Assembly: GCA_048938295.1 (NCBI GenBank)
Contig: JBHLMI010000046.1
Location: forward strand, 1-11,834
Length of the DNA: 11,834 nt
Source: Promethearchaeota archaeon
Lineage (GTDB): Archaea > Asgardarchaeota > Hermodarchaeia > Hermodarchaeales > Hermodarchaeaceae
Direction: 5' to 3'
Shown here: positions 1 to 11,834 of the stretch, in pieces
Numbering within the stretch: position 1 is the stretch's first letter
How the letters are laid out: every line of letters begins with the position of its first letter
Made by a program: the position numbers and the translations under genes
The notes under the pieces: generated by a model
Database searches by the model: none
The model's input: the letters and a program-made list of their open reading frames with translations, nothing else
Told to the model about the DNA's origin: nothing

Positions 1-864
1 CTTTACTTGACGATTAAACTCGGTAAAGAAACCGTCGACCTTCTAATGGATCGCGCACCGTCGGATTTGACCGTTCCTATCCGGCAGGCGATTGAACAAA
101 TCGATGGCATCAAAGAGTGTAGCCGAATCCGACTGCGAAAAGCCGGACCAATGACCTTCGTCGATATTGTATGCCATGCCGAGCCAGCTATTCCCCTCCA
201 CACTGCACATGAGATTAGCGTCAATGCCCGAAAAACCGCAGAACAAATCATAGGTCGTGCCGATGTCGTCGTCCATATGGACCTCGTCTCAAAGCAGCAT
301 CCACACTTGGGTCAAACCATTCGAAAAGAAACGAAGAACTTCCCTTGGATCAAAGACCTCCAGGGCATCGACAGCTTCGAAACAGACGAGTACATCACCC
401 TTGTGTTAGAACTCCAGATTGACCCACAAATGAGACTCGACGAAGCCCATCACCTCGTTTCAAAATTTGAAACCCATATCCAATCACAATACCCTTTCAT
501 CAAAGAAATCACCACCCACCTTGAACCCAGCCGCGCTCCCACACCAACCACTCACGATCCTAAAACCATCGAAACCCAAATCATTGCACTCGTACACAAA
601 AGCCCACAACTACACAATTGCCATGACATCCAACTGATCCCCCTCTCAGAGAACCTCTACAACCTTACCTTCCACTGTGAAGCACCTCCAAGTTTCACAG
701 TCGAAGAACTCCACGCCGCAACCACCCTCCTCGAAGACGAAATCCGCGAACAACTCCCAATCTTCTCACAAATCATCATTCACAACGAACCACTAAAACG
801 CAAAACGAAGACCAAAAAGGATCAAAAAGAGAAGGAGATTCCTCCCAAAAAAACGAATACCTAA
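1..864 (+). CDS. Cation diffusion facilitator (FieF/CDF) family transporter, C-terminal part with three tandem ZT_dimer-like domains; 5' end outside the window
   Basis: Frame is open from base 1. End of the last TM helix (LYLTIKLGKETVDLLMD) is followed by three repeats of the CDF cytoplasmic pattern (R.RKAG..FVD...H..AH; LDEAHHLV...THLEP; LHNCHDI...IIIHNEP). The last 22 aa are a K-rich tail encoded by an actin relic. Confidence 0.85.
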   Translation, partial: LYLTIKLGKETVDLLMDRAPSDLTVPIRQAIEQIDGIKECSRIRLRKAGPMTFVDIVCHAEPAIPLHTAHEISVNARKTAEQIIGRADVVVHMDLVSKQHPHLGQTIRKETKNFPWIKDLQGIDSFETDEYITLVLELQIDPQMRLDEAHHLVSKFETHIQSQYPFIKEITTHLEPSRAPTPTTHDPKTIETQIIALVHKSPQLHNCHDIQLIPLSENLYNLTFHCEAPPSFTVEELHAATTLLEDEIREQLPIFSQIIIHNEPLKRKTKTKKDQKEKEIPPKKTNT

Positions 865-920
865 ATGCAGTGATGGATCACTCTAGCTCCTCACTCCATG
901 TCCTTATTTTTTAGTTACCT
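824..920 (-). repeat. Actin 3'-end relic R1 (strongly decayed)
   Basis: aaaaagagaaggagattcctcccaaaaaaacgaatac is followed by cta aat gca gtg atg gat cac tct agc tcc tca ctc cat. The minus strand reads M-E-*-G-A-R-V-I-H-H-C-I-* versus actin [12 protein letters not shown]. One hairpin arm (cctccc) and the spacer are retained, and agt tac (T,V) sits at 913-918. Confidence 0.7.
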
Positions 921-967
921 ACGTAAATCTGAAAGGTTAAAGAGGAAGCTTCCACCATTACCCACAA

Positions 968-1945
968 ATGCGGGTTTTATTAACCGGAGCCTTTGGAAAT
1001 ATCGGGGAAAGTACCCTATTAGCTCTATTTGAACAGAGCCATAAGATACGCTGCTTTGATTTACTCACAGCACAAAATGAGAAAACTGCCAAGAGACTGC
1101 TTAAGTATGGCGATTTTGACACTGTTTGGGGTGATGTTCGCGATGTCGACACCACTAGGAAGATCGTTGAGAACGTCGAATGTATCATCCATTTGGCGGC
1201 AATTCTTCCCCCTGTAAGCGAACGAGACGCTGAATTTACCAATGCCGTGAATGTTGGCGGCACAGCGCGGCTAATCGAAGCCGCAGAAACATTATCGGTA
1301 AAACCCAAATTCGTCTATGCTAGCTCCATATCAATATTTGGACCCACAATGCATCTTCCTCCACCAAGGACCGCGGAGGATCCCCTTAGTCCAACCGACG
1401 TCTATACCACCACGAAGGTCAAATGTGAAACGGCGCTCCGGGCGAGTACCCTTCCCTGGACCATCTTACGTTTGGCAGCTGTCCCTCCCATACGCATCGG
1501 TGGCGACATCGACCCGATGTTATTCGAAATGCCCCTTGACCAACGAATCGAATTTGTCCACACCCGCGATGTCGGCACAGCCTTTGCTAACGCTGTAACA
1601 GCCGACACCACGGGCAAGGTGCTCCTAATTGGAGGCGGGAAATCCAGTCAGATGCATCAACGCGAATTCATCGCCAAACCCCTTAACGCCATGGGAGTCG
1701 GAATGCTCCCTGAATCTGCCTTCCGCGTCGCCACGAAGCCTGAAGAGTGGTATTATACCGATTGGCTGGACACCACCGAATCCCAACACCTCTTGCAATA
1801 CCAAAACCACACCTTCGACGAATACGTCGACGACCTCAAAGACGCCATCGGATTCAAACGCTACTTCGCACGACTCTTCCGAGGTTTCGCCCAAAAACGC
1901 CTCCTCGCCCAATCACCCTACTACCAAGAACCGAAGAATTCCTAA
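968..1945 (+). CDS. NAD-dependent epimerase/dehydratase (extended SDR) family protein
   Basis: N-terminal Rossmann motif VLLTGAFGNIG, IIHLAA, NVGGT, YASSISIFG and catalytic YxxxK (YTTTK). Confidence 0.92.
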   Translation: MRVLLTGAFGNIGESTLLALFEQSHKIRCFDLLTAQNEKTAKRLLKYGDFDTVWGDVRDVDTTRKIVENVECIIHLAAILPPVSERDAEFTNAVNVGGTARLIEAAETLSVKPKFVYASSISIFGPTMHLPPPRTAEDPLSPTDVYTTTKVKCETALRASTLPWTILRLAAVPPIRIGGDIDPMLFEMPLDQRIEFVHTRDVGTAFANAVTADTTGKVLLIGGGKSSQMHQREFIAKPLNAMGVGMLPESAFRVATKPEEWYYTDWLDTTESQHLLQYQNHTFDEYVDDLKDAIGFKRYFARLFRGFAQKRLLAQSPYYQEPKNS

Positions 1946-2039
1946 ATAGGATTCCACTCACCATCCTAGGCTAAGCTTATCTGTACAACAAGAAGTATCA
2001 TGAAAGTCAGTAATGAATGGGATTACTCATTTCTGAAGG

Positions 2040-2750
2040 ATGGATAAGGTGACGCGTTGGTCACAACAAGAAATCAGCCAGTTAGCACCGATTTTAATGC
2101 AGATGGAGCAAGATCTGTACCCTCTTAACGAAAAACAAATTTGTGTTCTCTGTAGTGGATTTGGAGAACTCGTGTTTCGTCTGGATAAAAAAATGAGGCA
2201 AAAAGGAAAAATTATCGGACTTGAACGCAGCAGAAAAGCATTACAGCAAGCCAAAACCTTTGCAGCACAAAATCAATTTCGTGCTCAAAGTTCCTTTCAA
2301 TTAATAACTAAGAATAAACTCCCTTATGCGAACCACACCTTCGATGCCCTCGTCAGTGAATTTATTATCTATCCAACGCCACTTCCAACCGAAATTGGCC
2401 AGTTGGAGATGGCTCGCGTAGTAAAACCAGGTGGAACAATCCTTCTCACTGATGTTTTACGAACACACCCCATGTCTAAAAAGGAGACCCAGGCTCTCAA
2501 GCACATCGATATTCACTATCTTTGTGACGCTACATTTTCAGATTTTCAAACCTGGATGACAGCCGCAGGCCTCACTAACATTACAATTCGTGATTTTACA
2601 CCTTTATTGCAAACGATTTGGAGCCAACGGGCGGCAAAAAACACAGATAAGACCCACCGAGTGGGGTACAACCTCCTCCTTCACGATAACAAACTAAAAT
2701 TAGGTGAAGGCATTTTCTATATTTACGCCAAAGGCAATACACCCCCATAG
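2040..2750 (+). CDS. Class I SAM-dependent methyltransferase (Methyltransf_11/UbiE-like)
   Basis: Degenerate motif I (VLCSGFGEL), acidic post-I (IIGLE), LPYANHTFDALVSE, EMARVVKPGGTILLTD. Confidence 0.85.
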   Translation: MDKVTRWSQQEISQLAPILMQMEQDLYPLNEKQICVLCSGFGELVFRLDKKMRQKGKIIGLERSRKALQQAKTFAAQNQFRAQSSFQLITKNKLPYANHTFDALVSEFIIYPTPLPTEIGQLEMARVVKPGGTILLTDVLRTHPMSKKETQALKHIDIHYLCDATFSDFQTWMTAAGLTNITIRDFTPLLQTIWSQRAAKNTDKTHRVGYNLLLHDNKLKLGEGIFYIYAKGNTPP

Positions 2751-2808
2751 CCATCCGGTTTAATTCATAAGGTGAAACAGAATAGTATTGTATAGAGAGG
2801 CTGGGTTT

Positions 2809-3069
2809 ATGTCCGAACAAAGCATGAAAACACCCATTGGAAAAGTCACCAACTATTACTCAAAAATCAATGTAGCCGTCATCGAATTATCCGCCCCTTT
2901 GAAACAAGGTGACGAAATCGCCATCAAAGGCGCAACGACGGAGTTCACACAAACCGTGGAATCCATGCAAATCGAACGCAAAAACATTGAATCCTCACAA
3001 GCGGGTCAAGCCATCGGATTAAAAGTCAAAGAGCGAGTCCGAATAGGCGATACCGTCTACCGCATTTAG
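2809..3069 (+). CDS. Small translation-elongation-factor-like protein (EF-Tu domain II-like / U32 peptidase C-terminal-like beta-barrel)
   Basis: IGKVTNYYSKINVAVIELSAPLKQGDEIAIKG...VESMQIERKNIESSQAGQAIGLKV..RVRIGDTVY. ATG 2809 is preferred over the TTG at 2788. Confidence 0.8.
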   Translation: MSEQSMKTPIGKVTNYYSKINVAVIELSAPLKQGDEIAIKGATTEFTQTVESMQIERKNIESSQAGQAIGLKVKERVRIGDTVYRI

Positions 3070-3110
3070 TAAAACTAGCCCCCTGAGTTTCTAATCACAC
3101 CACTCAACCA

Positions 3111-3166
3111 AACAAAAAAAAGGAGGCCACGCGCCCCACCTGAAAACCGCGATGAAAGACAGTAGC
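3111..3166 (-). repeat. Actin 3'-end relic R2 (barely recognisable)
   Basis: A-tract plus ggagg half-hairpin, then ctg aaa acc gcg atg aaa gac agt agc. The minus strand reads A-T-V-F-H-R-G-F-Q versus actin A-G-V-I-H-R-C-F-* (5/9 identical). It occupies the expected intergenic position. Confidence 0.45.
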
Positions 3167-3232
3167 TCTGAGTGAATCTTTCTCTGCACGCTTGAAATTA
3201 ATAAAAACCCATACTAAAAAGAAGAGGCTGCA

Positions 3233-3988
3233 ATGATGTCTCAACGTGCCTTGGTACGTGAACCCGGAGCTCAATTTACTCACTGCATTTCTTCACACCC
3301 ATTACATCATACCGTCAATGTTGCTCGAGCACGAACACAACATTCAGAATACGTTAACATGTTAACTGAACTGGGGCTTGAAGTCATTCAGTTGCCTCGT
3401 GACGATACTTACCCAGATTCTTGTTTTGTTGAAGATACCGCTGTTATCCATTCTGGTAAAGCCCTCATAACCCGCCTTACCAAGCAGAGTCGTCGAGGCG
3501 AAGAAGATTCAGTTGAGGAACTACTTCAAGAGTATTTACCTGTGCAGCGCATCATGGCTCCAGGCACCCTCGAGGGAGGAGATGTGATTCGGTTACCCAC
3601 CCGAATAATCTGCGGGATTAGCCAGCGTACAAATCGTGCTGGCATGGAACAGATGCAGACTTATTTTGGCGTGCCTGTCGATACCATTACTGATCCACAC
3701 CTCATTCACCTGAAAAGTCATGTAACCTACCTGAACCATAACATCATGCTCACCACTCAGACCTACACACACCACCCAATCCTAGCTGACTTCGAAGTCC
3801 TCGTCGTCCCCGAAAACGAGCAATACGCAGCCAACACTCTCACCATCGACGACACCGTGATCATGCTTACCGGATACCCGCAAACCCAACAACTTATCAA
3901 AGACACAGGTTTCGAAGTTATCAGCCTAAATATAAGCGAAATCACCAAATGCGACGGCGCCCTAACCTGCCTATCACTCCTATTCTGA
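3233..3988 (+). CDS. Dimethylarginine dimethylaminohydrolase / amidinotransferase family protein
   Basis: PDSCFVED, LEGGDV, HLKS and C-terminal GALTCLS (catalytic Cys) motifs. Confidence 0.92.
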   Translation: MMSQRALVREPGAQFTHCISSHPLHHTVNVARARTQHSEYVNMLTELGLEVIQLPRDDTYPDSCFVEDTAVIHSGKALITRLTKQSRRGEEDSVEELLQEYLPVQRIMAPGTLEGGDVIRLPTRIICGISQRTNRAGMEQMQTYFGVPVDTITDPHLIHLKSHVTYLNHNIMLTTQTYTHHPILADFEVLVVPENEQYAANTLTIDDTVIMLTGYPQTQQLIKDTGFEVISLNISEITKCDGALTCLSLLF

Positions 3989-4014
3989 GCCGTTCGCATT
4001 CACACAGATAAACT

Positions 4015-4114
4015 AGAGAAAAAAGGGAGGATACGCCGCCCAAAAAAACGGTTACCGTAGAAGCCGCGAGGGATTACTCCAGCACCCTACTCCATACGCT
4101 CAATGCCGTAACCT
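4015..4114 (-). repeat. Actin 3'-end relic R3 (decayed)
   Basis: A-tract, imperfect hairpin gggagg-atacg-ccgccc, spacer aaaaaaacggttacc, then gta gaa gcc gcg agg gat tac tcc agc acc cta ctc cat. The minus strand reads M-E-*-G-A-G-V-I-P-R-G-F; cgt aac (T,V) sits at 4107-4112. Confidence 0.8.
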
Positions 4115-4180
4115 ACTAGGAATCTTCAAACACTCACTATTGGTTACAGCAAAAAGTTGACTGTGTTGATGTTATTAAAC

Positions 4181-4197
4181 ATTCAATTTGAATATAA
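4181..4197. promoter_or_regulatory. Inverted repeat ATTCAA-T-TTGAAT overlapping a TATA-like AATATAA upstream of acr3; candidate repressor operator/promoter
   Basis: Perfect 6-1-6 palindrome at 4181-4193, about 80 bp upstream of the ATG at 4271. Function is inferred. Confidence 0.35.
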
Positions 4198-4270
4198 GAC
4201 CAAAGAGTTGATATTTTCTTCTAATTCGGATAACCGTACTCGACTAGAATTCAAATACGGAATTAAAGCA

Positions 4271-5317
4271 ATGTCAAATAACAATGAAGCACCAGTTGTA
4301 ATGGGGCTTTTTGAGAAATATCTAACTTTTTGGATTCTTTCTTTTATGGCTCTAGGTTTGCTCGTTGGATGGCTCTTCCCCACATTCGCTATCACATTAG
4401 CTAGCCTGCAATTTGCAGGATTTTCAATTCCTATTGCGATTTGCCTTTTTTTCATGATGTTTCCAACCCTCATCAACATTGAGTACCGTGAAATCAAGTA
4501 CGCCGTGAAATATCCAAAACCCCTCATTATCACACTCGTAGCTAACTGGATAGTGAATCCCATCCTCGGTTTTGTGCTCGCCAGCACCATACTTGCAGCT
4601 AACCCACAATACGTATTCGGAATTATTCTACTTGCAGTATCACCGTGCACCGCAATGGTCCTCTTTTGGAATAAGTACGCCAAGGGCAACATCAATCTCG
4701 GATTGGTAATCACTTCCATTAACTCCATTCTCATCCTGTTCCTTTATGCACCCCTTGCCTCCTTCTTTATTGGCCTCTATGTTCCCGTACCCTTCATTAC
4801 TCTCCTAGTTGGCACTATGTTCTTCCTCGTCCTCCCCCTAATAACCGGGATTCTCACCAAACGTTATATCTACAAAACAAAAGGTCAAGAATGGTTTGCC
4901 AGATCCTTCAAGCCCATTCTTGACAAAATTGCCATCTTTGCTCTCCTTCTCACACTCGTCGTTCTCTTTTCCTTCCAAGGCCAAGTCATCCTCACCCAAC
5001 CGCTGAATGTCCTCTGGATCAGCAGTGTTCTCTTACTAAACTATGTTATCATGTTCACCTCCGTGTTTGTCATCTGCTACAAACTCGGATTTACCTACAA
5101 ACAAACCGTCACCGTCACAATCATCTCCAGCAGCTCACATTTTGAAATCGCCATAGCCACCGCCATCCTCCTCTTTGGCCCAGGATCCGCCGCCGCATTC
5201 GCCACCGTCATCGGCGTCCTCTGGGAAGTTCCACTCATGGTCGCCTTCATCAAACTCGCCCTCAGACTACAACCAAAGCTTTGGAAACCCCCAGCATCAA
5301 GTCCTCCGAACCCCTAA
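4271..5317 (+). CDS. acr3: ACR3 family arsenite efflux transporter
   Basis: FEKYLTFWI, IPIAICLFFMMFP, LVANW, GIILLAVSPCTAMVLFW, SSSHFEIAIATA, IGVLWEVPLM. ATG 4271 is preferred because the ORF-track extension from 4157 is not protein-like. Confidence 0.93.
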   Translation: MSNNNEAPVVMGLFEKYLTFWILSFMALGLLVGWLFPTFAITLASLQFAGFSIPIAICLFFMMFPTLINIEYREIKYAVKYPKPLIITLVANWIVNPILGFVLASTILAANPQYVFGIILLAVSPCTAMVLFWNKYAKGNINLGLVITSINSILILFLYAPLASFFIGLYVPVPFITLLVGTMFFLVLPLITGILTKRYIYKTKGQEWFARSFKPILDKIAIFALLLTLVVLFSFQGQVILTQPLNVLWISSVLLLNYVIMFTSVFVICYKLGFTYKQTVTVTIISSSSHFEIAIATAILLFGPGSAAAFATVIGVLWEVPLMVAFIKLALRLQPKLWKPPASSPPNP

Positions 5318-5333
5318 TCCCATTCACCCAACT

Positions 5334-5373
5334 AAAAAAAGAGAAAGGGGAGGCCAAGCCTCCCAAAGTTACT
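5334..5373 (-). terminator. Actin-type terminator: left (terminator/spacer) half of split relic R4, now terminating the 5369-5686 gene
   Basis: aaaaaaagagaaaggggaggccaagcctcccaaagttactt matches the actin A-tract, hairpin and spacer (gttactt versus gctactt in R6) but no actin codons follow. Confidence 0.8.
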
Positions 5374-5686
5374 TGAGGTCACTCACATCAATACCCGGTC
5401 GGAGTAATCGAATACTGATATCATCGAGAAGCCCGGAAGAAATGGCCATCATTTTTTGCACGTCCGCATTTCCATAGAACTTTGCGAACTTCTCCATGCT
5501 CTCAAAGGGGATCCAATACATGATTCGCCCAGTATTGTCCGCCCAAAACGTTACGTCAGGACTAATCAATCCCTTTTTCAGCCATTCCTCTGTTTTCCCA
5601 CCCAGCTTCTCTTGCCAATCTAACAGTTGTTTCCCTCGAACCTCATCCTTAGGTGTACGATACTCAACACACAAGACGCATTTCAA
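5369..5686 (-). CDS. Hypothetical protein (~105 aa)
   Basis: Open frame. A perfect Shine-Dalgarno GGAGGTGA (plus strand tcacctcc, 5692-5699) lies 5 nt before a TTG at 5686, giving MKCVLCVEYRTPKDE... The stop lies inside the relic spacer. Confidence 0.7.
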   Translation of the reverse strand: MKCVLCVEYRTPKDEVRGKQLLDWQEKLGGKTEEWLKKGLISPDVTFWADNTGRIMYWIPFESMEKFAKFYGNADVQKMMAISSGLLDDISIRLLRPGIDVSDLK

Positions 5687-5882
5687 TGATCTCACCTCCA
5701 TTCCAGTAACCATCGAAGTGAAAAAGCCCATGCAGGTAGAGTAACTGATGCCATTCGGCCCTCCAAAGGCTAGCCACCCTTATGACAAATATAGTATTTA
5801 TATCCGAGGTTTTACGAATTTCCACCCGACAAAAACCCAGAGGCTGCAGAAGTCAGGCCACAGCATTTCCTTAACACAACCA

Positions 5883-5937
5883 CTAGGGAAGCACCGATGA
5901 ATCACATCAGCACTCTGCCCCATGTATCATGTAACCC
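5883..5937 (-). repeat. Right (coding) half of split actin relic R4
   Basis: cta gg gaa gca ccg atg aat cac atc agc act ctg ccc cat gta ... tgt aac cc. The minus strand reads Y-M-G-Q-S-A-D-V-I-H-R-C-F. No hairpin is adjacent. Confidence 0.8.
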
Positions 5938-5996
5938 TCGTTGACCTGCGTAATTTTATATCCACCAAGTGTGTAGAACACCTGAGGAAGAGCAGA

Positions 5997-6443
5997 ATGG
6001 CCACAGCAGGTTATGCCCGATATGAAATCGAAGGTCACATCGAAGAAGTCATCAATGTTTTGGAGCCACAATTTGGCGACTCCTTCACCCGAACCTATGA
6101 ACATAATGGACGATGCGTCCTTGCCATCCTCCTCACCGATCAATACGCATTTCTAACCAACAGCCACGTTGCTGTCACAATCATCCTTCGAACCCACGAT
6201 TACCTAGTCATCATGGACGTCATCGGCTACGGCGGTAGCAGCGGATTGATAGGCCTCGACTGGGGAAGCAACAAAAGCATCGTCCACGACGTTCACAGAC
6301 ACCTAACTAAACATGGCTTCAAAATCACTCGCACCCAGTTCACCGAACTCTCCAAACACCATGACCATCGCATAAAACAGTACCCACGAACCGAACCCAT
6401 CCTCGCAAATGACCCAGACTACTTCGAACCGCCAATCGATTAG
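5997..6443 (+). CDS. Hypothetical protein, DUF6054-like
   Basis: The segment VAVTIIL...MDVIGYGGSSGLIGLDWGSNKSIV recalls the GG..G.F..DWGAE motif of DUF6054 (from memory, not searched). The start may be ATG 5997 or ATG 5922, which lies inside relic R4. Confidence 0.6.
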   Translation: MATAGYARYEIEGHIEEVINVLEPQFGDSFTRTYEHNGRCVLAILLTDQYAFLTNSHVAVTIILRTHDYLVIMDVIGYGGSSGLIGLDWGSNKSIVHDVHRHLTKHGFKITRTQFTELSKHHDHRIKQYPRTEPILANDPDYFEPPID

Positions 6444-6551
6444 CAAAATGGTAAATCGTCGAGAATATTCAATAGACCCAAAATTACCATTAGCACAGAA
6501 ACATGCTCGACTCAGAAAAAAAGCAGAACAATTCAAACAAAAAAGAACGCG

Positions 6552-6658
6552 AAAAAAGAATGAAAGGGGAGGCAAGCCTCCCAAAAAAATCGACTACTTT
6601 AGAAGCACCGATGAATAACATCAGCACCCTAGTCCAGGTATTCTTTCTTCGTAACCCA
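6552..6658 (-). repeat. Actin 3'-end relic R5 (type A UTR, internal nonsense codon)
   Basis: A-tract, perfect hairpin gggagg-caag-cctccc, stop at 6599-6601. The minus strand reads W-V-T-K-K-E-Y-L-D-*-G-A-D-V-I-H-R-C-F-*. Confidence 0.95.
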
Positions 6659-6744
6659 CTTCACTGTCGTATTTATCTACGGAAGTTGTTGAGTTTAGAC
6701 CACCAACTAAGCATAGTACCTCACCAAGAATTGTTGGAGCTAAA

Positions 6745-7203
6745 TCAGTGAGAACGAACAAAGGGAACATAATCAGTCATAGGCACTTCTCTCCCTAACG
6801 TCCGTAATGCCAAGACTAACTGTCCACGATGGTAGGTCGCATGATTTACCAAATGAAACACAAACTCCACCACCGATATTGAACGCCCCTGCCCTACCTC
6901 CACAACACCCTCAGAACCCAACTTCTTAAAATATCGCCTCCATCGCTGCTGCATCTCCTCAACCACACCAATAATCATGTTCACACTCATCGCAGAAAAC
7001 TCCGGTTCGTCCCAATCCTCACCGGACACATCCACCAACCACTCCCAATAATCATAGGCCAAATGGACACAAATATCACGGATACTCCGCGAATAAGCGC
7101 CCAACGGAGCAACACACTCCTCCTCCGAAACCTCAACCACCACACCAAAAACCACCTTGTCAGCCCAACTCAAGTATTCAAACAGTCGATCTACACACTC
7201 CAT
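6745..7203 (-). CDS. DinB/YfiT-like family protein
   Basis: SIRDICVHL and HLVNHATYHRGQ His triad, LRTLGREVPMTDY C-terminus. ATG 7203 is preceded by GGGTGGT. Confidence 0.88.
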   Translation of the reverse strand: MECVDRLFEYLSWADKVVFGVVVEVSEEECVAPLGAYSRSIRDICVHLAYDYWEWLVDVSGEDWDEPEFSAMSVNMIIGVVEEMQQRWRRYFKKLGSEGVVEVGQGRSISVVEFVFHLVNHATYHRGQLVLALRTLGREVPMTDYVPFVRSH

Positions 7204-7279
7204 AGACTTACCACCCAAACATCAAACCAATACAACCACCTACCACCCACAATAAATAAAAAATCAGGCTAAACCCCTA

Positions 7280-7387
7280 GAAAAGAGAAAAAAGGGAGGA
7301 CAAGCCTCCCAAAAATTCGGCTACTTAGAAGCAGCGATGAATTACGCCAGCACCCTGCTCCTTGTACTCCTTTTTGGTCACCCACAA
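7280..7387 (-). repeat. Actin 3'-end relic R6 (type A UTR, intact reading frame)
   Basis: A-tract, hairpin gggagg-acaag-cctccc, stop at 7325-7327. The minus strand reads [20 protein letters not shown], with 9 synonymous and 2 non-synonymous codon differences from actin. Confidence 0.97.
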
Positions 7388-7394
7388 CCATTTT

Positions 7395-8180
7395 TTAGGA
7401 AATCCGTTTGAGGAAATCTAAAACCACGGTATAAAATAGCTCACATCGTTTGTCTACATAATTCATGTGTGTCATATCGGGGATGATGGCTAATTCTGCC
7501 TGGGGTATCAAGCTAAGCATTTCGATCTGAGTTTCAAGGGGAACCGCTTCATCTTTATCCCCCACAATGAGGAGCGTAGGCACCTCAATCTTTGTAATAT
7601 CGTCCTGCGGATAGTTCGATGGATCCCTCCACATTTGAAGCTGCTTGTTAACGAAGATTTCCAAATACTCAGACCCGTAGACGTGACTATGCACAGCCCT
7701 CAAAGTCTTCTTAAGTTCTGGTTGGGAGTCAAGCCATTGGGGAACTGACAAAAGACCCTCCCGCGTCTTTTGTGTCAATTCATGCATTCCCCCACCCACA
7801 ACGAGGGCCGTAATGAAGTGAGGATACCGGATACCAATTTCTAACGCTATTTGCCCGCCATCACTCCAGCCACCGATAATCGGATTCACCAGATCTAAAG
7901 CCTTGGCTAACGCCACAACATCATCGGCCATGACTCGATAATTCATTAAGTCCTGGGGATTATCCGTGCGACCACACCCTCGACAATCCGGAGTAATTAC
8001 GCGAAAATGCTCTGCGAATCGCTTCCTAAGATCCCCCCACCCCAGACTCCCTGTAAGCAACCCACCATGGACCAGAATCAACGGAATCCCCTTGCCCCGA
8101 TCCTCATAATACATACGAAGCCCATTCGCATCCACATAGTGCCCAAACTCAGGTAACACCTTCAGCTCATCGTTCTTCAT
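7395..8180 (-). CDS. Alpha/beta fold hydrolase
   Basis: VHGG oxyanion motif, PDCRGCGRT, nucleophile elbow GWSDGG, GDKDE acid, THM His. SD-like GAGGTG before the ATG. Confidence 0.92.
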   Translation of the reverse strand: MKNDELKVLPEFGHYVDANGLRMYYEDRGKGIPLILVHGGLLTGSLGWGDLRKRFAEHFRVITPDCRGCGRTDNPQDLMNYRVMADDVVALAKALDLVNPIIGGWSDGGQIALEIGIRYPHFITALVVGGGMHELTQKTREGLLSVPQWLDSQPELKKTLRAVHSHVYGSEYLEIFVNKQLQMWRDPSNYPQDDITKIEVPTLLIVGDKDEAVPLETQIEMLSLIPQAELAIIPDMTHMNYVDKRCELFYTVVLDFLKRIS

Positions 8181-8321
8181 GTCAACACCTCGTAACCATT
8201 AAAGATCCCAGCCACTAAAAGGTTAGCCAGTAAGCCACCCAATAGATCCTTCTCTACCACTCAAACTTAGGCACATGAAACTAAGGGAAAAAGCAGAATA
8301 AATCGCACAACAAAGAGAACG

Positions 8322-8422
8322 AAAAAAAGAGAAAGAGGGGGAGGCACAGCCTCCCAATAATTGAAGACCGTTTAGAAGCAGCGATGAATAACACCAGCGC
8401 CCTGTTCCATGTATACTTTTTT
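8322..8422 (-). repeat. Actin 3'-end relic R7 (type B UTR)
   Basis: A-tract, hairpin gggaggc-aca-gcctccc, spacer aataattgaagaccgt, stop at 8372-8374. The minus strand reads [16 protein letters not shown]. Confidence 0.97.
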
Positions 8423-8590
8423 ACAAACCGAGTATATGCTTGAGATCATCACGGCACTTTTCGTTTAGCGAGAATGCCTAGCCTCTCCAGAATGTAATTA
8501 ACAGGCCTAGCTCTATGGCCTCCAGTAGTTTTCTTAGAGAATAATTGAGAAGATTAATAATCCACGTTCTCAACTCTATCTGTGATTGAA

Positions 8591-8878
8591 ATGACTCTCA
8601 AAACAAAACAGGCGAAACCAGCTCCAAGCAGCCCTGCCACTGCCATTATCCTAATTGAAGTCTTACCCAAAGAACATCTCAACGTCTTACATATCGTTAA
8701 ACAAGACCTTGAAAAAATTGAAGGCGTCAAAGATGTGTGCGGTATTTTTGGCACCTGGGACCTATCAGCCATCATCGAAGAAGAGACTTATGAATCCCTC
8801 AAAAACAAAGTCATCGACGAGGTACGCGCCGTGCCTGGCGTTGGCAAAACTGAAACGCTCCTCCGATTTCCACTCTAA
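8591..8878 (+). CDS. Lrp/AsnC ligand-binding (RAM) domain protein, no HTH
   Basis: TAIILIEV.P...LEKIEGVKDVCGIFGTWDLSAIIE...VIDEVRAVPGVGKTETL. Start is ATG 8591 (GTG 8582 is an alternative). Confidence 0.88.
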   Translation: MTLKTKQAKPAPSSPATAIILIEVLPKEHLNVLHIVKQDLEKIEGVKDVCGIFGTWDLSAIIEEETYESLKNKVIDEVRAVPGVGKTETLLRFPL

Positions 8879-8967
8879 CATTGACTCAAAACAGCGAAAT
8901 ACTATCCTTAAGGATGACTTCAACAACCATCAATAGAAGAACTATGCAGTGAATGAAAACATCCATT

Positions 8968-9063
8968 AGAAAAAAGAAAAAGGGGAGGCACAGCCTCCCA
9001 ATAGGTGAAGACCGTTTAGAAGCACCGGTGATTAACGCCAGCGCCCTGCTCCATATTTTTCTT
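8968..9063 (-). repeat. Actin 3'-end relic R8 (type B UTR)
   Basis: A-tract, hairpin gggaggc-aca-gcctccc, spacer aataggtgaagaccgt, stop at 9016-9018. The minus strand reads M-E-Q-G-A-G-V-N-H-R-C-F-*, with an apparent 3-nt deletion in the preceding codons. Confidence 0.95.
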
Positions 9064-9142
9064 CCCGCTTACACCAATGGATTATTATAAGAAATTAAAG
9101 AGCAAATGTTGCTATGAATCCCAGAATGGTTGGTGAAACCCA

Positions 9143-9538
9143 ATGAAGCAAAGTGCAGGAAGAATCACTCGTCTTTGGCTCGGTATGGTCGAAGTCTCGG
9201 ATCTAGACAAAGCCCTCCAATTTTACCATGAGGTTCTTGGCCTACCCATAGCACTCGACGCAAGAATGTTTGATCACGCCGAAGTTGGCCCCGAAGAACC
9301 GTTAGCAAAAATCGGCCTATATGCTAGTGGTAAAAAAGCAGAGAAAATACGCCGAACAGGCATTGTCTTGGATACCGATGACATCAACGCCCTATACAAT
9401 AGACTAACCCGACACGGAGTAAAATTTACCACAAAGCCGACTAAGATGCCATGGGGCGGCATATCCGCAAAATTCCTCGACCCCGACAACAACGAATTCG
9501 AGGTCGTGCAAGACCCCCACCATTACTCACGAAAATAA
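9143..9538 (+). CDS. VOC family (glyoxalase/bleomycin resistance) protein
   Basis: VSDLDKALQFYHEVLGL, IVLDTDDINALY..L...GVKF...P..MPWGG....FLDPDNNEFEV. Confidence 0.93.
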   Translation: MKQSAGRITRLWLGMVEVSDLDKALQFYHEVLGLPIALDARMFDHAEVGPEEPLAKIGLYASGKKAEKIRRTGIVLDTDDINALYNRLTRHGVKFTTKPTKMPWGGISAKFLDPDNNEFEVVQDPHHYSRK

Positions 9539-9553
9539 AACACCAACAACACC

Positions 9554-9657
9554 AAAAAAAGAGAAAGAGGGGGAGGCACAGCCTACCAATAAGTGAAGAC
9601 CGTCTAGAAGCAGCGGTGGATCACGCTAGCGCCCCGTTCCATGTATTCTTTCTTTGT
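9554..9657 (-). repeat. Actin 3'-end relic R9 (type B UTR), nearest to actin
   Basis: A-tract, hairpin with one mismatch (gcctacc), spacer aataagtgaagaccgt, TAG stop at 9604-9606. The minus strand reads T-K-K-E-Y-M-E-R-G-A-S-V-I-H-R-C-F-*. Confidence 0.97.
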
Positions 9658-9839: not shown

Positions 9840-10202
9840 ATGCGCTTCAAATGGCTCGCCGACGACTGCACCACCTGGGACGACATAATCCACGCCCTGC
9901 ACCACCGAATCACCGCCATTGAAGACCTCAAAGCCCAAGGCGCAATCTTAGCCCAAAACAACAACGACGACTACATCTTCTATGAAATCCCCGGCGAAAC
10001 CGCCATCTTCGCCACCCTCACCACCCTCACTGACACTGAGTGCACCTTCCAACTCGACGATGGTGCCACCATCACCACCCCACGACCCGACTGGACCGAC
10101 TTCACACACGACCACCTCCACTGCCGCCTTGTCCTCCTCATCACCGAAACCGGCGAACTCAACGGCGTCTCCCTTCCCCACCACGTCCCGAGCGACCCAT
10201 AA
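9840..10202 (+). CDS. Hypothetical protein, translationally coupled to the downstream endonuclease gene
   Basis: 120-aa ORF whose stop overlaps the next ATG (TAATG, 10200-10204). The frame stays open upstream to 9711 with a protein-like sequence (KIDYEKLSTYLTEDELDQLD). Confidence 0.7.
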   Translation: MRFKWLADDCTTWDDIIHALHHRITAIEDLKAQGAILAQNNNDDYIFYEIPGETAIFATLTTLTDTECTFQLDDGATITTPRPDWTDFTHDHLHCRLVLLITETGELNGVSLPHHVPSDP

Positions 10203-11335
10203 TGATCACCGGCACACCCTACTTTCCTAAAAAATGTCCAACTTGTCCGATTTACCGCCTTCGCCAAACTACCCAGCCTGGCACTAAAGCCACCTATCAA
10301 CGCAAATTTGACATCACAACCGAACTCCAAATCGTCTGCGACTACACCTGCAAAGAAAAAAGCAGCCTCCAACTTGCGCAAGAAAAAGACTGCACCCAAG
10401 ACACCATCCAAAACATCGTCCGCAGATTCAATAAACCCCTCCGCTCTTTCCGCGACGCCCAACTCCTCCGCCGCGGATCCAAAGACCTCACCTTCCCCCT
10501 CTCACCCGAAGTCCCCCAGCTCCTCCAACACCCTAAGGTAAAGCCCTTTCTACCGCAATTAATAGCTGTCATGCTCCTCACCGACGGTGTCGCCGGCTAC
10601 CGCCAAGGTCACCGCCCTTACCTTACCTTCACCAATAAAGCGGAAACCCTCCACGCCATCTTCGCCGACCTCATCCACTTCCACTACAACCAACCCCCAT
10701 CCGCCTACTTCAAAAAATACTGGAGCAGAGCAAAGAAACAAGGTTCCTGTGCCTTCTACACTACCTATAACCGCATAGCCGACACACATCCCATCCTTAA
10801 CGAACTCCTTACACTCAGCCCCACATATCGGACACAACCCAAACTCGGACAATCATGGGAAAACTACCTCCAGCAAACCCCACAACCCACACTCCAATTC
10901 TTATCAAACCCAACCATACCTACACAAATTCACAACTTCGTAATCCAACTAGGCATGAGCGCCGAAGGTTCCATTAGCCCCATCTTTGTGTCAGATAGTC
11001 GATTCCCTTATCCACATCTAACATTGGGCTGCAAACATCCATTACTCAAAGAACAATGGAAAACATATCTCGAAATCCAAGGCTTTTCATTCAACAAAAC
11101 CACCGAAATGATTGAAACCGCACAACTCCAGCAAGCGAAGAAATTCCTCAATCTTGGTGGTTTTTTCAACGGTGTAAAAGTGAAAGCTGGCAGTTATTAT
11201 GAAGGACTCGACAAACAAGCCGTCTTAAAAGCAATACTCATTGACAGAAAAACCCATCCAATCGACCCAGCACTTCTAAAACAGGAAAAACATAAAATCT
11301 TACGCCAACGAGCATTACAATTCAAAAAATCCTAA
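10202..11335 (+). CDS. Free-standing double-motif LAGLIDADG (homing/intein-type) endonuclease-like protein with N-terminal CxxC and HTH
   Basis: Motif 1 LIAVMLLTDG (10559-10588) and motif 2 VIQLGMSAEG (10940-10969) both keep the acidic residue. HTH-like IVCDYTCKEKSSLQLAQEKDCTQDTIQNIVRRFNKPLRS and CPTC lie upstream. Start is set at ATG 10202 (377 aa) by the TAATG coupling. Confidence 0.75.
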   Translation: MITGTPYFPKKCPTCPIYRLRQTTQPGTKATYQRKFDITTELQIVCDYTCKEKSSLQLAQEKDCTQDTIQNIVRRFNKPLRSFRDAQLLRRGSKDLTFPLSPEVPQLLQHPKVKPFLPQLIAVMLLTDGVAGYRQGHRPYLTFTNKAETLHAIFADLIHFHYNQPPSAYFKKYWSRAKKQGSCAFYTTYNRIADTHPILNELLTLSPTYRTQPKLGQSWENYLQQTPQPTLQFLSNPTIPTQIHNFVIQLGMSAEGSISPIFVSDSRFPYPHLTLGCKHPLLKEQWKTYLEIQGFSFNKTTEMIETAQLQQAKKFLNLGGFFNGVKVKAGSYYEGLDKQAVLKAILIDRKTHPIDPALLKQEKHKILRQRALQFKKS

Positions 11336-11350
11336 TCTCCACTCACACGA

Positions 11351-11399
11351 AATAAAAAAAATGAAAAAGGGGAGGCAAGCCTCCCAAAAATCAGCTACC
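11351..11399 (-). terminator. Actin 3' UTR and terminator: hairpin GGGAGG-CUUG-CCUCCC followed by U-tracts (type A UTR)
   Basis: Plus strand gggagg caag cctccc at 11370-11385, flanked by A-runs at 11351-11368 (U-tract on the minus strand), 14 nt after the actin stop. Confidence 0.85.
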
Positions 11400-11834
11400 T
11401 TAGAAGCACCGATGAATAACACCAGCGCCCTGTTCCATGTATTCTTTCTTTGTCACCCACATTCGCTGAAACGTCTTTAGAGAGGCTAGGATGCTGCCGC
11501 CGATCCAGACGGAGTACATGCGTTCGGGTGGGGCGACGATTTTGACTTCGACGTTTTCGGGGATGGATTCGATGATTTCTTTGCGGAGGCGTTCTTTGAG
11601 TCCGGGGAACATGGTGGTGCCGCCGGAGAGGACGATGTTCGCGTAGAGGTCGCGGCGGAGGTCGACGTCGCATTTGTGGACGGCTTCGACGATGGCGTCG
11701 TCGAGGGGTTGGGCTTCGATGCCGATGGCGCCGGGGTTGAATAGGACTTCGGGTCCCTGGAAGCGTTCGGCGCCGACGGTGAGGGTGGAGCCGTCGGGGA
11801 GCATGTATTTCTTTTCCATGCCGGCGACTTTTTC
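11400..11834 (-). CDS. Eukaryote-like actin (Asgard/lokiactin-like), C-terminal ~145 codons; 5' part outside the window
   Basis: [67 protein letters not shown], terminal HRCF. High GC with C-ending codons is consistent with high expression. The prokaryotic gene neighbourhood argues for an archaeon. Confidence 0.95.

Follow-up and report, generated by a model that had tools for sequence, protein, structure and literature searches.

Why should the end of a housekeeping gene recur in the DNA downstream of that gene? The question is raised by the 3' side of an actin gene in a Promethearchaeota archaeon (Hermodarchaeaceae; contig JBHLMI010000046.1 of assembly GCA_048938295.1). The window analyzed here is one entire contig, 11,834 bp, of a 2.5-Mb metagenome-assembled genome (GC 45.8%). 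This genome is designated G000, and other G and L labels denote the related genomes and loci compared with it. Downstream of actin the contig carries at least eight copies of the last 9–20 actin codons with their stop, all co-oriented with the gene, and none of 200 shuffled controls yielded any match. We call these copies relics (R9, nearest to actin, to R4, and two older ones starting at 4057 and 861) and the end of the gene in use the live tail. Live and relic tails together form one sequence pool, whose divergence took place under selection for the C-terminal peptide of actin, and the relics decay neutrally once displaced. The relics are likely to be former actin 3' ends (9–20 codons, stop and terminator hairpin) that were displaced serially by invasions of a homing-endonuclease element. 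A 69-kb contig from a second assembly (L057) matches the window with 99.86% identity and zero gaps across 11.6 kb, and carries a complete 380-aa actin gene with housekeeping genes upstream; the arrangement is therefore neither an assembly artefact nor a chimera.

The repeat unit consists of the 9–20 terminal codons, the stop codon, a spacer of 12–20 nucleotides (nt), a GGGAGGC..GCCTCCC hairpin, a T-run, and a CCAYTCAC motif. Such units separate blocks of one or two accessory genes, the sets of which differ in related species, and the decay of the relics increases with distance from actin. The CCAYTCAC motif lies 25–45 nt off the hairpin and forms the far edge of the unit (1941–1970, 5305–5330, 9516–9540, and 11325–11350). 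The open reading frames (ORFs) of the epimerase, the SBF transporter, and the glyoxalase, as well as the endonuclease gene, terminate in or at this motif.

The original prediction, made from the sequence alone, had counted by hand the synonymous and non-synonymous differences of five relics from the live tail (R9 5/2, R8 3/1, R7 2/1, R6 9/2, and R5 3/4; 22 versus 10 in total). A codon table reproduced these counts exactly; some differences at the 5' edges of R7 and R8 had been omitted from them, and automatic homology limits gave 5/2, 5/3, 2/1, 9/2, and 3/5, respectively. By the Nei-Gojobori method, R5–R9 together have 23.8 differences at 51.5 synonymous sites and 13.3 at 209.5 non-synonymous sites. 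The ratio of the two proportions (pN/pS) is 0.14 (Fisher's test, 5.6e-11), and the formal comparison that had been called for thus agrees with the hand counts. Individually, R9 (0.002), R8 (0.018), R6 (2e-7; pS 0.79 and pN 0.04), and the relics at 4057 and 861 are significant in the Fisher test. Across 23 relics, pN/pS is 0.094, with a binomial probability of 3e-29 against a non-synonymous to synonymous rate ratio (omega) of 0.5 or more. When 27 relics from seven genomes were each compared with the live tail of their own genome, the differences at codon positions 1/2/3 numbered 27/25/177, and those between relics inside this genome 59/56/147. One relic of another genome, G014-a, shows 11 synonymous versus two non-synonymous differences. 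The live tails of nine genomes encode one and the same peptide and differ at 15/8/295 sites by codon position.

Because the relics share ancestry and are not independent, two controls were applied: every variant was also counted only once, and a codon model was fitted on a tree. Variants common to at least two tails are distributed 6/6/26 over the codon positions (p 2.7e-5). Private variants, almost all of which are on relics, are distributed 13/12/9 (p 0.68), and this flat pattern indicates neutral decay following displacement. The maximum-likelihood codon model on a neighbor-joining tree of 33 tails gave an omega of 0.146. An omega of 1 was rejected (twice the log-likelihood difference, 2dlnL, 110), as was an omega of 0.5 (2dlnL 46, p 1e-11), the expectation for a local copy decaying neutrally while the live gene drifts silently. 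In a two-ratio model, omega was 0.03 on the internal and live branches and 0.23 on the terminal relic branches (p 1.7e-6). The silent excess therefore survives both the event-level count and the codon model, as expected if the fragments had been under protein-level selection before their displacement, which the original prediction had proposed. A "pool" test, which asked whether the codons of relics recur in live tails of other genomes (133 pool-synonymous, 18 private synonymous, and 57 private non-synonymous variants), is weak, because the pool has most of the silent variants that are possible.

The premise that neutral decay of a duplicate should reverse the ratio was also upheld. L120 and L163, from unrelated Asgard lineages, hold tail copies that differ from their live tails by about six non-synonymous changes per synonymous one. 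These are independent single tail duplications (L120:8340–11700 and L163:2520–5900) around cargo genes, namely a ferric-reductase-like oxidoreductase and a PKD/beta-helix protein. Between R8 and its G012 orthologue, which have flanks in common, seven non-synonymous and two synonymous differences were found, indicating that constraint at the DNA level does not freeze the relics.

This R8 pair bears on the explanation that the relics are constrained today, as translated C-termini or small peptides, as RNA structures, or as a protein-binding DNA site, in a way that spares codon positions 1 and 2. An ATG at codon −12 is retained in most relics and could begin a 12-codon ORF, and the hairpin behind the stop is retained with compensating changes. 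However, translation of the relics at present is unlikely, because in-frame stops lie upstream of or within most of them, including stops at codon −10 in at least six; the private changes, moreover, are flat over the codon positions. A conserved RNA structure, which the original prediction had named as the alternative to peptide selection, found no support in the coding part of the tail, where the consensus fold (alifold −3.4) did not significantly exceed that of column-shuffled controls (−2.0 ± 1.7). A DNA or RNA site would also not yield a three-base period preserving the actin peptide. We therefore regard present-day constraint as scarcely credible. The stops at codon −10 (TAG, TAA, or TGA) are found in four genomes, at a position that is CAG in every live tail. 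They lie at 6629–6631 (R5), 4087–4089, and 891–893 in the window and in relics L043:1831, L045:3262, and L140:2729, and could reflect shared ancestry, a mutational hot spot, or selection, for example for loss of an endonuclease target.

The tails were then compared with the actin body between genomes (36 pairs tested). Between G000 and G005, 13 of 124 third positions differ in the body (10%) and nine of 20 in the tail (45%, p 5e-4); between G000 and L141, the values are 13 of 124 (10%) and ten of 20 (50%, p 1e-4). The 3' region of actin is mosaic, with identical stretches interspersed among blocks in which silent divergence has reached saturation, for example at codons −55 to −40 versus G004. 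The GC content at third codon positions (GC3) is 0.53 in the live tail versus 0.78 in the body, which is suggestive only. Spacers fall into classes that cut across genomes. Class I follows the live tail in G000, G012, G014, and G004, and class II follows R7–R9 in G000 but the live tail in G005, L140, and L219; L058 has a third class. The 120 nt 3' of R7 score 157 with the live flank of L219 versus 52 with the live flank of their own genome, and the 3' flank of R5 scores 113 with that of L140 versus 72 with its own. Twenty of the 27 relics are nearer to the live tail of another genome than to their own, a figure inflated by the choice of the best of nine. These comparisons show that diverged lineages have exchanged the live tail and its 3' unit without regard to the actin body. 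Part of the silent excess stems from the present live tail being itself foreign, with the relics being displaced residents, each of which was probably brought by an earlier invasion. R9 itself looks chimeric: its codons −17 to −11 are those of its own live tail and its last five codons those of the G005 live tail. Its class II spacer is also found in G005, a pattern as left by a crossover inside the tail.

These data bear directly on the simplest account, in which each insertion made a local copy of the resident tail that went on to decay neutrally, with silent drift of the live gene as the only source of the silent excess. The gradient of decay along the array agrees with it, as do the presence of the live gene's tail haplotype in R5, R7, and R4 and, in L058, the resemblance of most relic spacers to the live spacer. 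It predicts an effective omega of at least 0.5, which both the codon model and the binomial test reject, and R6 and G014-a are far too silent in their divergence. The differences between relics likewise fall at third positions, R7 and R5 have flanks resembling live flanks of other genomes, and the genuine local duplicates found elsewhere are dominated by non-synonymous change. Local duplication is thus very improbable. The preference of the original prediction for tails donated by incoming divergent alleles is favored by the rejection of an omega of 0.5, the discordance between body and tail, the mosaic 3' region, the matches of the R7 and R5 flanks, and the endonuclease stubs of a different lineage described below.

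A candidate for the invading element lies in the first slot beside actin. An ORF convergent to actin encodes a 377-aa protein, the AlphaFold2 (AF2) model of which has a mean predicted local distance difference test (pLDDT) score of 84 and contains two helix-plus-strand repeats. In a Foldseek search with this model, the 50 listed top-ranked PDB matches were all LAGLIDADG homing endonucleases or maturases (probability about 1). The model has a pseudo-dimeric alpha-beta fold with two LAGLIDADG helices, each carrying a conserved acidic residue, and these residues (D128 and E255) do not vary among 12 homologues. A copy of the gene occupies the same slot in nine of nine loci of the genus, and no copy was detected in the sister genus, where relics are lacking as well. 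The lineages of the endonuclease are 54–79% identical to one another and track the spacer class, in that the G000 type accompanies class I or III and the other types accompany class II. Their relationships conflict with those of the actin body, as in G005, whose body is nearly identical to that of G000 while its endonuclease is 59% identical. The first element of L219 and L058 also contains cargo (among it NERD, PLD-like, and metallo-beta-lactamase-fold genes). In L219 (9169–9188), the 395-aa endonuclease ORF extends past the hairpin and the spacer and shares 20 nt with the final actin codons on the opposite strand. In the metagenome contig L140 (571–1689), the longest Met-initiated ORF of the gene is 270 aa, yet tblastn aligns residues 1–374, and this copy may be decaying.

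C-terminal stubs of a divergent (P0010-type) endonuclease gene adjoin R7 and R5, and similar stubs adjoin one relic of G004 and one of L058. The stubs beside R5 and R7 indicate that these units formerly ended a live actin gene and had an endonuclease gene of their own. We infer that the endonuclease is the motor of tail replacement, and the following course of events would account for the array. A free-standing LAGLIDADG element, convergent to actin, would bring its own in-frame tail copy and 3' unit. Its entry point, at the 3' end of actin in another lineage, would be a fixed junction immediately before the TGG at codon −19, and no fewer than eight relics have their end there. A repair or recombination (conversion) tract would extend back into the actin body. 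The tail of the element would become the live one, and the resident tail would stay downstream. Successive invasions by different endonuclease lineages would stack older units in a row, and the superseded endonuclease genes would erode to C-terminal stubs. The accessory genes that remain would have travelled with endonuclease genes or have been exchanged later by recombination between units.

Several observations limit the original prediction or weigh against this scenario of serial invasion. The original prediction held that each relic was once a working actin tail. This stands for the relics collectively, but "each" is too strong, because R7 (0.05), R5 (0.12), and R4 (0.09) fall short of significance singly; the tails are just 27–60 nt long, which makes the tree weak and the power of single-relic tests low. 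The prediction also expected full-length actin genes with tails matching individual relics. No exact donor was found in the 80 genome and 80 metagenome loci of Asgard actins that were scanned, and no sampled live tail is identical to any relic by codon, the best residuals being 1–8 third-position differences. The 377-aa protein had zero matches in a Pfam search, and its Foldseek E-values are only around 1e-3 (range 1e-3 to 3e-2), with template modeling (TM) scores of 0.3–0.5. Endonuclease stubs were found in two of the eight relic units here. The presence of the gene beside actin in all species, at the identities given above, may mean that it is old rather than repeatedly invading. The differences in cassettes between species fit deletion by recombination between units as well as insertion. 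Finally, a LAGLIDADG gene is absent between the duplicated actin tails of L120 and L163, and a resident endonuclease gene is therefore not required for tail duplication.

Some of these points would suit an integron-like mechanism, in which the tail-plus-hairpin unit is a recombination site, the recombinase is encoded elsewhere, and circular one-gene cassettes enter and leave. The endonuclease gene would then be one more cassette, and the silent differences would come from working tails swapped by crossovers inside the unit. The array is compatible with this in having one or two genes, in either direction, between co-oriented units, a sharp 5' junction before TGG in many relics with the CCAYTCAC motif at the opposite edge, and a cassette order that varies among species and has joints formed by hybrid units. 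However, neither the array nor the 10 kb upstream of actin was found to contain a recombinase gene, and the two tyrosine recombinases (PF00589) detected in the genome are both elsewhere (contigs C32 and C33). The crossover points vary: that of G012-b follows the hairpin, and that of G014-a versus R9 lies at the stop codon. Neither the stubs beside R5 and R7 nor the constant first-slot position of the endonuclease gene is explained. We consider this mechanism unlikely, although a recombinase acting in trans stays a live rival because of the endonuclease-free duplications in L120 and L163, the stubs in only two of eight units, and the cassette differences compatible with deletion. Returning to invasion by the endonuclease element, a further-reaching version, which we put forward tentatively and do not favor, makes the actin 3' end the landing pad of an endonuclease-driven gene-capture platform. 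In this version the tail copy would be immune to cleavage and accessory genes would be ferried between species, forming an integron-like array without a site-specific recombinase; every invasion would push the preceding unit downstream, and the actin end would be rewritten time after time.

Table 1. Coordinates of the actin end, the candidate endonuclease, the relics, and the other features of the window; relic counts are synonymous/non-synonymous differences from the live tail.
Feature	Position	Strand	Remarks
Actin gene, 3' fragment (144 codons + stop), truncated by contig end	11400..11834	-	Pfam Actin 1.8e-53
Live actin tail (final 20 codons + TAA)	11400..11462	-	History discordant with actin body
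Live 3' unit: class I spacer, GGGAGGC..GCCTCCC hairpin (11369-11385), T-run, CCAYTCAC motif	11338..11399	-	Recurs with every relic
Candidate homing endonuclease, 377-aa LAGLIDADG-fold protein with N-terminal Cys/helix-turn-helix region	10202..11335	+	AF2, Foldseek, homologues
120-aa ORF, function unassigned, stop overlapping start of endonuclease gene	9840..10202	+	ORF list
Relic R9 (17 codons + TAG), class II spacer	9604..9657	-	5/2
Relic R8 (12-15 codons + TAA), class II spacer	9016..9063	-	3/1 to 5/3
Relic R7 (16-19 codons + TAA), class II spacer	8372..8431	-	2/1
C-terminal remnant of divergent (P0010-type) endonuclease gene, beside R7	8233..8382	+	tblastn E 3e-17, 72% over 50 aa
Relic R6 (20 codons + TAA), class I spacer	7325..7387	-	9/2, Fisher 2e-7
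Relic R5 (20 codons + TAA), in-frame TAG at codon -10	6599..6661	-	3/4-5
C-terminal remnant of P0010-type endonuclease gene, beside R5	6427..6570	+	tblastn E 3e-13, 59% over 41 aa
Relic R4 (13 codons), stop gone	5885..5926	-	3/3
Older relic (12-14 codons), in-frame TAG, stop gone	4057..4098	-	6-8/3-5
Oldest relic still recognizable (9-16 codons), in-frame TGA	861..908	-	Sequence match to tail
Accessory genes among relics	1..9603	.	Pfam; listed in the text

The closest described system is that of the mobile endonuclease ORFs (mORFs) of fungal mitochondria, with which the present case shares all structural features tested. A mORF consists of an endonuclease ORF (LAGLIDADG or GIY-YIG) and a replacement C-terminal segment at the 3' end of a conserved gene (atp6, atp9, cox2, and nad3 in Glomus), and its insertion leaves the native C-terminus downstream as a relic (PMC3630166). 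Inserted and native segments are 64–81% alike in DNA and 94–100% alike in protein, which was taken as horizontal transfer (PMC3630166). According to the same paper, the type was first found in the atp6 hybrid gene of Allomyces macrogynus (its ref. 48), and works cited there are given as demonstrating the endonuclease activity of the fungal element (PMC3630166). Similarly, the candidate LAGLIDADG-fold ORF here ends 64 bp from the actin stop, with a counterpart in all nine loci of the genus (9/9), and a duplicated C-terminal segment lies beyond it (R9, with equivalents in G012, G014, G004, and G005). In-frame and displaced segments are divergent in DNA and nearly identical in protein (pN/pS 0.09–0.14), and, compared with the body, the C-terminus in use is of foreign origin (p 1e-4 to 5e-4) within a mosaic 3' region. 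The two systems differ in that the host here is an archaeal chromosome and the target actin, and in that the endonuclease gene is convergent rather than an in-frame fusion, with its activity predicted. In addition, the duplicated unit here takes in the terminator hairpin, and replacement appears to be serial, with at least eight relics and accessory genes between them.

Gene ends are also substituted by other kinds of elements. In Escherichia coli, phage 21 and the element e14 insert into icd and supply a substitute 3' end with mostly silent differences, displacing the resident end; they use a tyrosine integrase with attP and attB, and each case concerns one prophage. The outcome is alike here, but no ORF of the window has an integrase domain, and none was found near the array. 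With integrons (IntI, attI, and attC), the array shares small accessory cassettes, co-oriented repeats, a fixed entry point, and a content varying between relatives. It differs from them in having no IntI-type gene among its own genes or in the 10 kb upstream of actin, in its variable crossover points, and in its repeat, which is the 3' end of a housekeeping gene with a short terminator hairpin and no consensus fold over the tail, rather than an attC palindrome. The free-standing homing endonucleases of T4-like phages have their genes between conserved genes and cause co-conversion of flanking markers. The endonuclease gene here likewise lies amid conserved genes, and the flanking coding DNA is mosaic between relatives. 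In phage homing, however, the recipient sequence is replaced and no displaced copy is left, whereas here the displaced tail is retained. The tycheposon-type islands of Prochlorococcus reportedly carry tandem cargo at the 3' end of a conserved gene with partial copies of that end in between, and are said to target tRNA genes and to use integrases. Their tandem cargo and partial end copies are similar to those found here; their repeats are non-coding, and therefore no silent-site signal exists in them.

Actin-tail relic arrays were found in every readable member of the genus (G012, G014, G005, G004, L058, L140, and L219). None was found in the sister genus, nor in 66 of the 70 other Asgard actin loci with a recognizable tail. 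Extra tail copies in L180, L182, and L209 were rejected as relics, since they belong to tandem full-length actin paralogues. These paralogues (387–389 aa, about 2–3 kb apart) differ in their last 25 codons at silent sites only.

Asgard actin is a signature "eukaryotic" gene and a widely used marker. In this genus, the final 20 codons of actin and parts of the 3' region have a mosaic make-up and have been exchanged between species, apparently together with a selfish endonuclease element, which affects actin phylogenies and would explain the breaks of assemblies at actin in the genus. Successive replacements of a gene end have left, in the relic series, a dated record of a rare kind. Should the endonuclease prove to be the motor, accessory genes could build up next to an essential gene with no integrase involved. 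Within the literature searched (full text), fungal mitochondria supplied all examples of such an architecture, each of them a single event, and neither this locus nor any LAGLIDADG element at an Asgard actin gene was found described.

Assemblies of the genus frequently end within or at the end of actin (11456–11834 in the window; contig ends in G001, G004, and G010). In the likely source run, the summed contig depth climbs from about 30 to 105 across the actin body, which fits several co-occurring strains with actin in common and different downstream DNA. Logan contigs of four runs break at the units. Joints between units, for example from 6541 to 8312 and from 7372 to 9605, as well as a class II spacer beside a live-like tail, were seen in Logan contigs but were not used as evidence, because with a likeness of 88% in metagenomic data they may derive from co-occurring relatives.

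The accessory genes of the array, as assigned by Pfam, comprise a CDF transporter, an epimerase, a methyltransferase, an EF-Tu-D2-like protein, a DDAH-like protein, an SBF/ACR3-type transporter, one unknown, DUF6054, DinB, an alpha/beta-hydrolase, an AsnC-ligand domain protein, and a glyoxalase. The 120-aa ORF next to the endonuclease gene had no match in Pfam or the protein atlas; its GC3 of 0.78 is that of the actin body, and the other genes of the array have values of 0.40–0.54. One unit appears to be split: a tail-less hairpin (5345–5370; window 5334–5373) lies right behind the stop of a minus-strand 120-aa ORF, and the apparent other half is the R4 tail (5885–5937), which has no recognizable hairpin of its own.

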